Source: Escherichia coli (GTDB lineage Bacteria > Pseudomonadota > Gammaproteobacteria > Enterobacterales > Enterobacteriaceae). Taken from it: 64,000 nucleotides of DNA. The stretch lies in NCBI RefSeq assembly GCF_050920415.1, contig NZ_CP169309.1; one strand, written 5' to 3'. The notes under the pieces are model-generated. The model saw only the letters and a program-made list of their open reading frames with translations, had not been told where the DNA came from and did no database searches. This document shows positions 3,459 through 62,689 of this stretch, piece after piece; within the stretch, counting starts at the first letter, position 1, and every line of letters starts with the position of its first letter. Position numbers and translations under genes: made by a program.

Positions 3459-3757
3459 GAGCCGCATTCCGGCATTTAAACGTGAATATAGCAGGGGAAA
3501 TCAACAGTTATAGAATGGCGTCGGGTGCTTGAGGCTGTCTGGCGTTAAGCATTCGCGAGGTTCCAGATGGACAAAAGCCCCAGGCGATATATCTATCAAC
3601 CTGAGGCTCGCGTTCGAACGTAGCAATTCGGATGTTAGTCTCTTCTTTGCAGGGAGGCAAGACATGTGTATATCACTGTAATTCGATATTTATGAGCAGC
3701 ATCGAAAAATAGTCCACTGATATCATCGATAATACTAAAAAAACAGGGAGGCTATTA

Positions 3758-43629: not shown

Positions 43630-43741
43630 TGTTGATTATCCCTGCGGTGAATAATGTCGATGATGTCGAAATGACACGTCGACACGGCGACGAAATTCAT
43701 CTTTAGCTTAAAAATCGCTTTAATAACAATAAATTAAAAGT

Positions 43742-43757
43742 TGGCACAGAAAATGCT
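43742..43757 (+). promoter_or_regulatory. Sigma-54 promoter (-24/-12) of the hyc operon
   Basis: TGGCACagaaaaTGCTT with correct GG-N10-GC spacing, about 40 bp upstream of the hycA ATG. Confidence 0.6.
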
Positions 43758-43793
43758 TAAAGCTGGCATCTCTGTTAAACGGGTAACCTGACA

Positions 43794-44255
43794 ATGACTA
43801 TTTGGGAAATAAGCGAGAAAGCCGATTACATCGCACAGCGGCATCGTCGCCTACAGGACCAGTGGCATCTCTACTGCAATTCGCTGGTTCAGGGGATCAC
43901 GTTATCGAAAGCGCGCCTGCATCACGCCATGAGCTGTGCGCCAGACAAAGAACTCTGTTTCGTCCTTTTTGAACATTTTCGCATTTACGTCACCCTGGCG
44001 GATGGCTTTAACAGCCACACCATCGAGTATTACGTCGAAACGAAAGAGGGTGAAGAAAAACAGCGGATTGCGCAGGCACAATTGAGCATTGACGGAATGA
44101 TAGATGGCAAGGTCAACATCCGCGATCGCGAACAGGTGCTGGAACACTATCTCGAAAAAATCGCTGGCGTTTACGACAGCTTATACACCGCCATTGAAAA
44201 CAATGTACCGGTGAATTTAAGCCAACTGGTAAAGGGACAAAGCCCGGCGGCATGA
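43794..44255 (+). CDS. hycA: Formate hydrogenlyase regulatory protein HycA
   Basis: 153-aa ORF, first gene of the hyc operon. Confidence 0.92.
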   Translation: MTIWEISEKADYIAQRHRRLQDQWHLYCNSLVQGITLSKARLHHAMSCAPDKELCFVLFEHFRIYVTLADGFNSHTIEYYVETKEGEEKQRIAQAQLSIDGMIDGKVNIRDREQVLEHYLEKIAGVYDSLYTAIENNVPVNLSQLVKGQSPAA

Positions 44256-51823: not shown

Positions 51824-52135
51824 ATGCACATCATTTCTAAAGCGCCATTTGAAGAGTCTGCGCGTAAATATCCTAACGACGCTCTGGCTCTACACTCATT
51901 GTATCGGGTTATTAAGGAAACGGATTTTTCTACGCCAGAAGAAATGCGAACGGCGTTTCCCAACCTCGACAATTTTAAATATCGCAATAAATGGTACGTT
52001 CTGGATGTAGGCGGGAACAATCTTAGGGTTATTGCCTACATAAACTTTGTTAATAAGCGGTTCTTTGTGAAGCACATAACGAATCATGCCGAGTATGACA
52101 AACTGACACGTTACTACAGAGAGAACAAAGAATGA
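51824..52135 (+). CDS. HigB-like type II toxin (RelE/ParE superfamily mRNA interferase)
   Basis: 103-aa ORF (MHIISKAPFEE...FPNLDNFKYRNKWYVLDVGGNNLRVIAY...) with HigB-family architecture; Shine-Dalgarno aggaag upstream; 4-nt overlap (ATGA) with the downstream antitoxin gene; AT-richer than the flanking hyc genes. Confidence 0.75.
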   Translation: MHIISKAPFEESARKYPNDALALHSLYRVIKETDFSTPEEMRTAFPNLDNFKYRNKWYVLDVGGNNLRVIAYINFVNKRFFVKHITNHAEYDKLTRYYRENKE

Positions 52136-52551
52136 CTGCTAATGCTGCACGCGCTGTTAAAGCAACAAGAGAACTGGTCAATGCAGTCCCCTTTCTGGGA
52201 GGCAGTGACTCAGAAGATGATTATCGTGAAGCACTGGAACTGGTCGAATATTTGATTGAAGAAGATGACACCAATCCACTTATCGACTTTCTGGCGAGCC
52301 GTATTGCAGAATATGAAAACAACCACGAAAAGTTTGCAGAGTTCGATAAAGCCGTTGCAGCAATGCCGATTGGCGTGGCGTTACTTCGCACGCTGATTGA
52401 TCAACATAATCTGACCTATGCGGATTTGAAGAACGAAATCGGCTCTAAATCCCTGGTCAGTCAGATTTTGTCTGGACAAAGATCCCTGACGATATCCCAC
52501 ATTAAGGCACTTTCAGCCCGATTTGGCGTTAAGCCGGAATGGTTTCTTTGA
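52132..52551 (+). CDS. HigA-like antitoxin (XRE-family HTH)
   Basis: 139-aa ORF whose C-terminal HTH (GSKSLVSQILSGQRSLTISHIKALSARFGV) and N-terminal region resemble HigA; toxin-first gene order typical of higBA. Confidence 0.75.
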   Translation: MTANAARAVKATRELVNAVPFLGGSDSEDDYREALELVEYLIEEDDTNPLIDFLASRIAEYENNHEKFAEFDKAVAAMPIGVALLRTLIDQHNLTYADLKNEIGSKSLVSQILSGQRSLTISHIKALSARFGVKPEWFL

Positions 52552-56826: not shown

Positions 56827-56839
56827 ACATTGTCATCAC

Positions 56840-56876
56840 ATGTCATCGTCACTAGTGTCGATGACATCGTTTTTTC
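56840..56876 (+). terminator. Rho-independent terminator of ascG (near-perfect 28-bp palindrome plus T-run)
   Basis: atgtcatcgtcactagtgtcgatgacat (2 mismatches from perfect dyad symmetry) followed by cgtttttt, 14 nt after the ascG stop. Confidence 0.6.
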
Positions 56877-56921
56877 TGCATTGCAGAATTTAATTTCTTT
56901 AAATAACAATGAATTAAAAAT

Positions 56922-56937
56922 TGGCATGATTTGTGAA
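56922..56937 (+). promoter_or_regulatory. Putative sigma-54-type promoter of hydN-hypF
   Basis: TGGCATgatttgtGA with a good -24 element but a weak -12; the preceding ~20 bp (aaataacaatgaattaaaaat) is nearly identical to the sequence just upstream of the hycA sigma-54 promoter. Confidence 0.35.
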
Positions 56938-56975
56938 TGTATCGGCAGCATTAACTGTCATTGCTGGAGAATTTG

Positions 56976-57503
56976 ATGAACCGTTTCATCATTGCTGACG
57001 CGAGTAAATGTATTGGTTGTCGTACCTGTGAAGTGGCGTGCGTGGTTTCTCATCAGGAGAATCAGGACTGTGCATCGCTGACCCCGGAAACTTTTTTACC
57101 GCGAATCCATGTCATTAAAGGTGTGAACATTTCCACGGCGACAGTCTGCCGTCAGTGTGAAGATGCACCGTGCGCTAACGTCTGCCCGAATGGTGCTATC
57201 AGCCGTGATAAAGGGTTTGTTCATGTCATGCAGGAACGTTGCATTGGTTGCAAAACCTGCGTTGTGGCTTGCCCGTATGGTGCGATGGAAGTGGTAGTGC
57301 GTCCGGTGATTCGCAACAGCGGCGCAGGGCTTAACGTACGCGCTGACAAAGCCGAAGCTAATAAATGCGACCTCTGTAACCATCGTGAAGACGGCCCGGC
57401 GTGTATGGCTGCTTGCCCGACCCATGCGCTGATTTGTGTCGATCGTAATAAACTTGAACAACTGAGCGCAGAAAAACGCCGCCGCACGGCGCTGATGTTC
57501 TAA
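56976..57503 (+). CDS. hydN: Electron transport protein HydN (4Fe-4S ferredoxin-type)
   Basis: 175 aa from the ATG at 56976 ([22 protein letters not shown]); multiple ferredoxin Cys motifs. Confidence 0.93.
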
Positions 57504-62618: not shown

Positions 62619-62634
62619 TGCAGATTGCGTGCCA
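62619..62634 (-). promoter_or_regulatory. Sigma-54 promoter (-24/-12) of norVW
   Basis: Minus-strand TGGCACGCAATCTGCA (GG-N10-GC) about 50 bp upstream of the norV start. Confidence 0.6.
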
Positions 62635-62689
62635 GTTTTTTATCTGATTGTTTTTACTATACAAATAAAATTATGCTCATTAATGAGTA

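Follow-up and report, generated by a model that had tools for sequence, protein, structure and literature searches.

The ascG-hydN and hypA-hycA intergenic regions

The window, which is the whole 64-kb (64,000-nucleotide) stretch of Escherichia coli DNA analysed here (contig NZ_CP169309.1), encodes fhlA-hypEDCBA (minus strand), hycABCDEFGHI (plus strand), a higB/HTH gene pair, ascBF (minus strand), ascG (plus strand), hydN-hypF (plus strand) and norWV (minus strand), in that order. An annotated E. coli chromosome matches the window at 100% identity, confirming the identities of the two regions compared, namely the ascG-hydN (56827-56975) and the hypA-hycA intergenic regions. The HigB-family toxin and HTH antitoxin genes are localised between hycI and ascB (51824-52551) and are missing from this position in E. 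coli K-12. A sok antitoxin RNA at 3523-3678 (Rfam RF01794, 97 bits) indicates the presence of a hok/sok locus, and no RNA family was identified at the hydN or hycA locus in the Rfam scan. The features of the promoter regions are collected in Table 1, with positions numbered from an inferred start located 24 bp downstream of the second G of the -24 GG.

Table 1. Features of the hyc, hydN and norV promoter regions, with coordinates in the window and positions relative to the inferred start
Feature	Coordinates	Strand	Basis
Upstream activating region of hyc, presumed FhlA enhancer; TGTCG/CGACA and CGAAAT repeats	43654-43695	+	GACGAAATGACAYGTCG conserved in orthologs
hycA A-tract AAAAAT, -58 to -53	43710-43715	+	Sequence, ortholog profile
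hycA copy of the 27-bp motif	43721-43747	+	Sequence comparison
hycA predicted IHF core TAACAATAAATTA, -44 to -32	43724-43736	+	Orthologs, consensus, K-12 ChIP-chip peak
hycA sigma-54 promoter, TGGCAC ... TGCT	43742-43757	+	Sequence, orthologs, published ChIP-seq (PMC4591121)
hycA coding sequence, first gene of hycABCDEFGHI	43794-44255	+	Annotation match
Upstream activating region of hydN, presumed FhlA enhancer; 28-bp palindrome at 56840-56867	56828-56869	+	Kept in orthologs; FhlA assignment from literature (PMC4987338)
hydN A/T tract ATTTAATT, -60 to -53, 8 bp upstream of the core	56888-56895	+	Conservation; A at -55 in 75/81
hydN copy of the 27-bp motif (predicted IHF core, spacer and -24 box)	56901-56927	+	Sequence comparison
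hydN predicted IHF core TAACAATGAATTA, -44 to -32	56904-56916	+	WATCARNNNNTTR with one mismatch, T to A at position 3
hydN sigma-54 promoter, TGGCAT (-26 to -21) and GTGAA (-15 to -11; non-canonical A at -12)	56922-56937	+	Sequence, conservation, published sigma-54 ChIP-seq
hydN coding sequence, first gene of hydN-hypF	56976-57503	+	Annotation match
norV promoter composite: predicted IHF core AAACAATCAGATA (62653-62641), AAAAAC spacer, TGGCAC (62634-62629), TGCA (62622-62619)	62619-62653	-	Sequence; IHF binding (PMC2831303); ChIP-chip peak

The hycA promoter (TGGCAC-N6-TGCT) is a full match to the sigma-54 GG/GC criterion with 10 bp between the doublets, while that of hydN (TGGCAT-N5-GTGAA) retains the GG and the correct 10-bp spacing, with GA instead of GC at -13/-12. 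The original prediction of a -24 element at the end of both shared sequences, with a weaker -12 in hydN, was correct on both points. Both promoters are sigma-54 ChIP-seq sites in K-12, with matrix scores of 9.2 for hydN versus 12.4 for hycA (PMC4591121), and their Salmonella orthologs are likewise bound by sigma-54 (PMC3844500). Among 82 orthologous hydN sequences, the base at -12 (window 56936) is A in 43 (Escherichia, Citrobacter and Enterobacter) and T in ten, while the canonical C is found in the remaining 29 (Klebsiella, Kluyvera and others). A sigma-70 scan upstream of hydN returned a single weak match (9/12) at 56861-56889, which did not exceed shuffled sequences. The hycA 5' leader at 43764-43793 (CTGGCATCTCTGTTAAACGGGTAACCTGACA) shows strong conservation among Escherichia, Salmonella and Citrobacter. 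Another TGGCAT occurs within it, but lacks a -12 partner and is therefore not a second sigma-54 promoter.

Repeats are found further upstream of both promoters. In hydN these form a palindrome with 14-nt arms that are 93% complementary, while CGAAATG half-sites occur upstream of hycA, and both are presumed to be FhlA enhancers on the basis of the literature. No match to the published 16-mer FhlA enhancer consensus (CATTTCGTACGAAATG) with three or fewer mismatches occurs anywhere in the window. The 3' end of the hydN palindrome (...CGATGACA) falls into two spacing classes among loci L007-L086, at -81 to -84 (48 sequences) and at -71 to -74 (30 sequences). These are separated by one turn of the helix, which is what a face-of-helix constraint would predict. 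Immediately behind ascG, at 56874-56888, a hairpin resembling a terminator (TTCTGCATTGCAGAA) and a T-rich run after it lie between the hydN enhancer and the predicted IHF site, and may represent a weak ascG terminator.

A 27-bp sequence shared by the two promoters

The stretches of approximately 27 bp which had been described as near-identical in the two regions were found at the positions given for them and share 23 of 27 nucleotides (23/25 over 56902-56926), with differences at 56901/43721, 56911/43731, 56920/43740 and 56927/43747. A degenerate 25-nt consensus, AATAACAATRAATTAAAARTTGGCA, matches only these two copies on both strands of the 64 kb and none of 100 dinucleotide shuffles, and the runner-up 27-mer anywhere in the window reaches only 18/27. 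When the -24 box is disregarded, the A/T-rich 20 nt are identical at 17/20 positions, a score attained by 22 of 20,000 composition-preserving shuffles compared against the hyc-hyp intergenic region. When both regulatory regions are aligned globally, the TGTCG/CGACA-rich enhancer, the A/T element and the -24 box lie at near-equal spacing with a single 3-bp indel. Both stretches are A/T-rich intergenic DNA beside similar -24 boxes, and a fortuitous likeness might thus be considered, but the shuffles and the distance to the next best 27-mer show that the similarity exceeds chance.

The hydN copy in the window is a rare allele. Of 5,426 complete E. coli genomes, just two match the segment 56880-56950 at 99% identity or more over its 71 nt, and matches at megablast stringency are limited to 72 genomes. 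In K-12 the hydN copy reads AATAACAGTAAATTAAAAACTGGCAT and is identical to the hycA copy of that strain at 22/27 positions; relative to the window hydN, one R, one N and one Y position of the motif are changed, and the 5' leader contains a 1-bp indel. The differences among the window hydN, K-12 hydN and hycA copies all fall at R, N or Y positions, or outside the core on the 5' side.

Conservation of a predicted IHF site in the Enterobacteriaceae

Scanning of one genome per species with HydN yielded 80 Enterobacteriaceae loci, nine of which also contain hycA, and nine further hycA promoters were obtained via HycA homologues. The resulting comparison set comprised 81 distinct hydN and 20 hycA promoters of Enterobacteriaceae, anchored on the -24 GG, in which IHF sites were scored solely by the consensus WATCARNNNNTTR. 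Upstream of -61 the hydN DNA is essentially random (~0.1 bit among the 81 promoters), so that the conservation which remains downstream of this point reflects selection. The conserved positions are W(-44), A(-43, 74/81), W(-42), C(-41, 75/81), A(-40, 76/81) and R(-39, G in 40 and A in 36), followed in the 3' half by T(-34), T(-33, 77/81) and A(-32, 78/81), and then by an A at -31 in all 81 promoters. The specified core positions hold 0.67-1.74 bits each, versus 0.19-0.64 bits at the four N positions (-38 to -35). The same pattern of conserved core and free N positions is observed in the hycA set. The conserved and variable positions agree with WATCARNNNNTTR throughout, down to the purine degeneracy and the unconstrained tetranucleotide, which identifies the element as a probable IHF core.

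A core with at most one mismatch is present at the exact offset and strand in 62 of the 81 hydN and 13 of the 20 hycA promoters, compared to 0.2% and 0.1%, respectively, at control offsets, and perfect cores occur in 18/81 and 3/20. Both sets likewise contain the A/T tract (-60 to -53), separated from the core by 8 bp on its upstream side; in the lambda H' IHF site an A-tract is found at the same distance of approximately 8 bp from the core. The perfect AATCAA form is found in many genera (Enterobacter, Lelliottia, Klebsiella and Kluyvera), while Escherichia and Citrobacter carry TAACAA, and both E. coli cores accordingly contain one mismatch (TAACAA...TTA, with TAACAA instead of WATCAA). The window contains about one core with one mismatch or fewer per kb, so that a lone E. 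coli sequence would be weak evidence, and this frequency could also be cited in favour of a chance resemblance. The pattern is, however, kept at a fixed offset in approximately 80 species, and chance, to which we assign a vanishingly small probability, is already refuted by these comparative data.

No core was found at the -44 offset in four loci, L056, L058, L061 and L070 (Enterobacter sp. Ag1, a Pantoea MAG, Cedecea neteri and RIT693). Further upstream, the Cedecea and RIT693 hydN promoters contain a sequence on the opposite strand (TTTCAATAAATTG) which may be an inverted core. Compensation of a weak -12 element by a better IHF site was also considered and was not seen, the mean number of core mismatches being 1.44, 0.7 and 1.14 in promoters with A, T and C at -12, respectively; no relation between the hydN -12 base and the quality of the IHF core was observed among the 82 sequences.

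The core is directly followed in the promoter set by conserved nucleotides at -31 to -27 (A, A, A, R, Y) which adjoin the -24 box, giving an extended -24 element at -31 to -21. The extended sigma-54 -24 consensus is mrNrYTGGCACG, and the -31 to -27 segment fits it, so that no extra, unexplained protein site is needed. The shared 27-mer thus appears to be fully accounted for by an IHF core and an extended -24 box. Very probably, it combines a 13-bp IHF core (-44 to -32), which has an associated A/T tract (-60 to -53), with the extended sigma-54 -24 element (-31 to -21) in a fixed register. The near-identity of the E. coli copies can be explained by both being close to the family-wide optimum, from which they differ from each other just at degenerate consensus positions.

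Published IHF ChIP-chip peaks at hydN, hycA and norV

Three consecutive IHF ChIP-chip peaks have been reported for anaerobically grown K-12 at 2830160-2830750, 2836093-2836334 and 2848300-2848788 (PMC3688515 Table S4, Myers et al. 2013). After conversion of the coordinates, using a 1978-bp offset between K-12 coordinate versions derived from the published hydN sigma-54 motif centre and the K-12 sequence, these cover the norV, hydN and hycA/hypA sites, respectively. The converted positions are ~2836186-2836214 for hydN and 2848515-2848527 for the hycA core, and the hydN, hycA and norV sites each fall within ~30 bp of a peak centre, although the peaks have a resolution of hundreds of bp, span ~15% of the local genome and are biased towards A/T-rich intergenic DNA. 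Further peaks in the list overlie hyfA, zraP/zraS, pspG and argT, and none is found over the fdhF promoter or glnAp2 (PMC3688515). While the sheet holding Table S4 is named 'HNS_ANAERO_CMARRT...', its title states IHF ChIP-chip, and the peaks (present at norV, pspG, zraP and hyfA; not at glnAp2 and fdhF) behave as expected for IHF. Conservation across ~80 species and the published peaks together lend good support to the suggestion, made in the original prediction, of an IHF-like bending site upstream of the -24 element.

Occupancy of 40% of the sigma-54-regulated genes by IHF has been observed by ChIP-seq (PMC3333857), and Table 1 of PMC2636881 lists IHF as an activator of hyc and hyp. No explicit report of an IHF site or of ihfA/ihfB dependence for hydN was found in the literature searched. 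The hyc site most plausibly lies at 43710-43736, as deduced from the sequence, its conservation and the ChIP-chip peak. This would be the IHF site of hyc that was reportedly described by Hopper and colleagues in 1994.

The A/T-rich part of the motif could alternatively represent an UP-like element contacted by the alpha-CTD, or intrinsic A-tract curvature, neither of which requires specific binding of IHF. The region is A/T-rich, position -31 is invariably A, and A-runs (-32 to -29) adjoin the -24 box. UP-like elements are known to cooperate with IHF in the Pseudomonas Pu promoter. An element of this kind could also act together with IHF here. The near-invariant C(-41), the R(-39) and the four free positions are, however, those of a specific protein consensus rather than of general A/T richness, and the IHF ChIP-chip peaks overlie the sites. 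We consider this alternative to IHF unlikely.

The same arrangement at other sigma-54 promoters

The second-best match to the A/T-rich 20-mer in the window (GTAAAAACAATCAGATAAAAAACTGGCACGCAATCTGCA, minus strand) is located in the norV promoter, where IHF binds between the start site and the NorR enhancers (PMC2831303). As in hydN and hycA, the enhancer, IHF site and sigma-54 promoter of norVW follow one another in the same order, within the same window and beneath an IHF ChIP-chip peak. The activator is, however, the nitric oxide-responsive NorR, and the core has two mismatches and ends 6 bp, rather than 5 bp, before the TGG. A perfect core (AATCAATAGATTA) followed by TGGCAT occurs in pspG, resembling hydN and hycA but with a gap of 4 bp, which places it 1 bp closer, and in a different regulon, that of PspF. 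IHF bends the DNA and assists PspF-dependent activation at psp (PMC3709507). The zraP promoter of K-12 contains a one-mismatch core placed as in pspG, 1 bp closer to the TGG than in hydN and hycA.

The Klebsiella nifH, E. coli glnHp2 and Pseudomonas putida Pu promoters are classical IHF-assisted sigma-54 promoters with the order enhancer, IHF bend and promoter. These classical promoters and lambda H' share a WATCAANNNNTTR core, and the A-tract of hydN and hycA lies ~8 bp upstream of it as in H'. The hyc site, at the sigma-54 promoter of hycA, is itself one of the two copies described here, with IHF placed between the FhlA enhancer and the -24/-12 elements. Several of the classical promoters have their IHF site centred at a greater distance from the -24 element, while in hydN and hycA the core ends 5 bp before the TGG. 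Judging from these sequences, an IHF core followed by TGG after a gap of 4-6 bp appears to be a recurrent layout of IHF-assisted sigma-54 promoters.

In K-12, the sequences preceding the -24 boxes of fdhF, hypA and hyfA do not resemble the motif. The absence of the motif from these promoters and its presence at the NorR-dependent norV promoter and at pspG indicate that it is not specific to the formate regulon, and the proposal of a promoter cassette used by formate-regulon operons is contradicted at fdhF and at the other two FhlA-regulon genes alike. The same observations bear on a contact of the A/T-rich part with a factor peculiar to this regulon, such as a second FhlA site, HycA, ModE or another protein. 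Both operons do belong to the FhlA regulon (PMC4987338; PMC11841067), and the reference list of PMC2636881 includes a report of ModE as a secondary activator of hyc. Besides its absence from fdhF, hypA and hyfA and its occurrence at the NorR-dependent norV and the PspF-dependent pspG promoters, the motif is unlike the published FhlA enhancer consensus, and no ModE-like TATAT-N7-TAYAT site with two or fewer mismatches is found in either intergenic region, nor is there any enrichment overall. Such a regulon-specific contact is thus very improbable, and the additional activator site that had been suggested finds no place in a segment which fits the extended -24 consensus at -31 to -27 and in a motif that is not confined to formate-regulon promoters.

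Origin of the similarity

A duplicated promoter cassette, copied or kept alike by gene conversion instead of by a shared protein site, had also been put forward. The near-equal spacing of the enhancer, A/T element and -24 box, with one 3-bp indel, would be compatible with this, and HydN is a paralogue of HycB, the product of the second hyc gene (39% identity), so that an ancient gene duplication has occurred. At 39% protein identity, however, no neutral DNA similarity could survive, and the hyc promoter precedes hycA and not hycB. Within genomes, the hydN and hycA promoters are on average identical at 13.0 of the 21 positions from -47 to -27, versus 12.3 in cross-species comparisons, and the within-genome values for Salmonella, Intestinirhabdus, Citrobacter and Cedecea (7-13) do not exceed the cross-species ones. 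The Escherichia pair (17-18/21) falls in the upper tail because neither of its copies departs far from the family consensus; E. coli hycA is identical to Citrobacter hydN at 16/21 positions. Conservation is, furthermore, found at exactly the positions specified in the IHF consensus, with drift at the N positions, and the norV and pspG promoters, which are unrelated, contain the composite as well.

As within-genome identity does not exceed that between species outside Escherichia, the data give no indication of a recent duplication or of gene conversion, and a copied cassette is a distinctly unlikely explanation. The similarity is probably held by shared constraint rather than by recent copying. 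An ancient common origin of the two regions would be compatible with the data.

Proposed mechanism and significance

In enhancer-dependent transcription, an IHF bend brings the activator to the sigma-54 closed complex. In both operons the predicted order is an enhancer at approximately -120 to -70, an IHF site at -60 to -32 and a promoter at -26 to -11, an order in which IHF, bound between enhancer and promoter, would bend the DNA sharply. This bend may allow the formate-activated FhlA oligomer at the enhancer to touch the closed complex of the sigma-54 holoenzyme, and the contact would drive open-complex formation. Looping through an IHF bend has been restated for norV (PMC2831303) and psp (PMC3709507). 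For hydN, we infer both the requirement for IHF in expression and the looping geometry.

The fixed 5-bp gap between the IHF core and the TGG in hydN and hycA across ~80 species, which is matched to within 1 bp at norV, pspG and zraP, might mark a subclass of sigma-54 promoters in which IHF positions or recruits the holoenzyme through protein-protein or alpha-CTD contact beside the -24 box, with 'WATCARNNNNTTR-N4-6-TGGCA' acting as a single recognition unit. This suggestion is speculative and rather doubtful.

Of the original prediction as a whole, the IHF-like bending site is retained, while the regulon cassette, the duplication and the extra activator site are not. The arrangement of upstream activating sequence, IHF site and sigma-54 promoter is a standard one and is documented for hyc, and the hydN site at most adds a member to it. 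The result matters little beyond annotation, where it explains why two formate-regulon promoters look alike and assigns a probable, predicted IHF site to hydN-hypF. The comparative footprint, with its fixed offset in ~80 species and its two enhancer spacing classes, could nevertheless guide promoter engineering for hydrogen production, as well as the study of how closely IHF and the sigma-54 holoenzyme pack.
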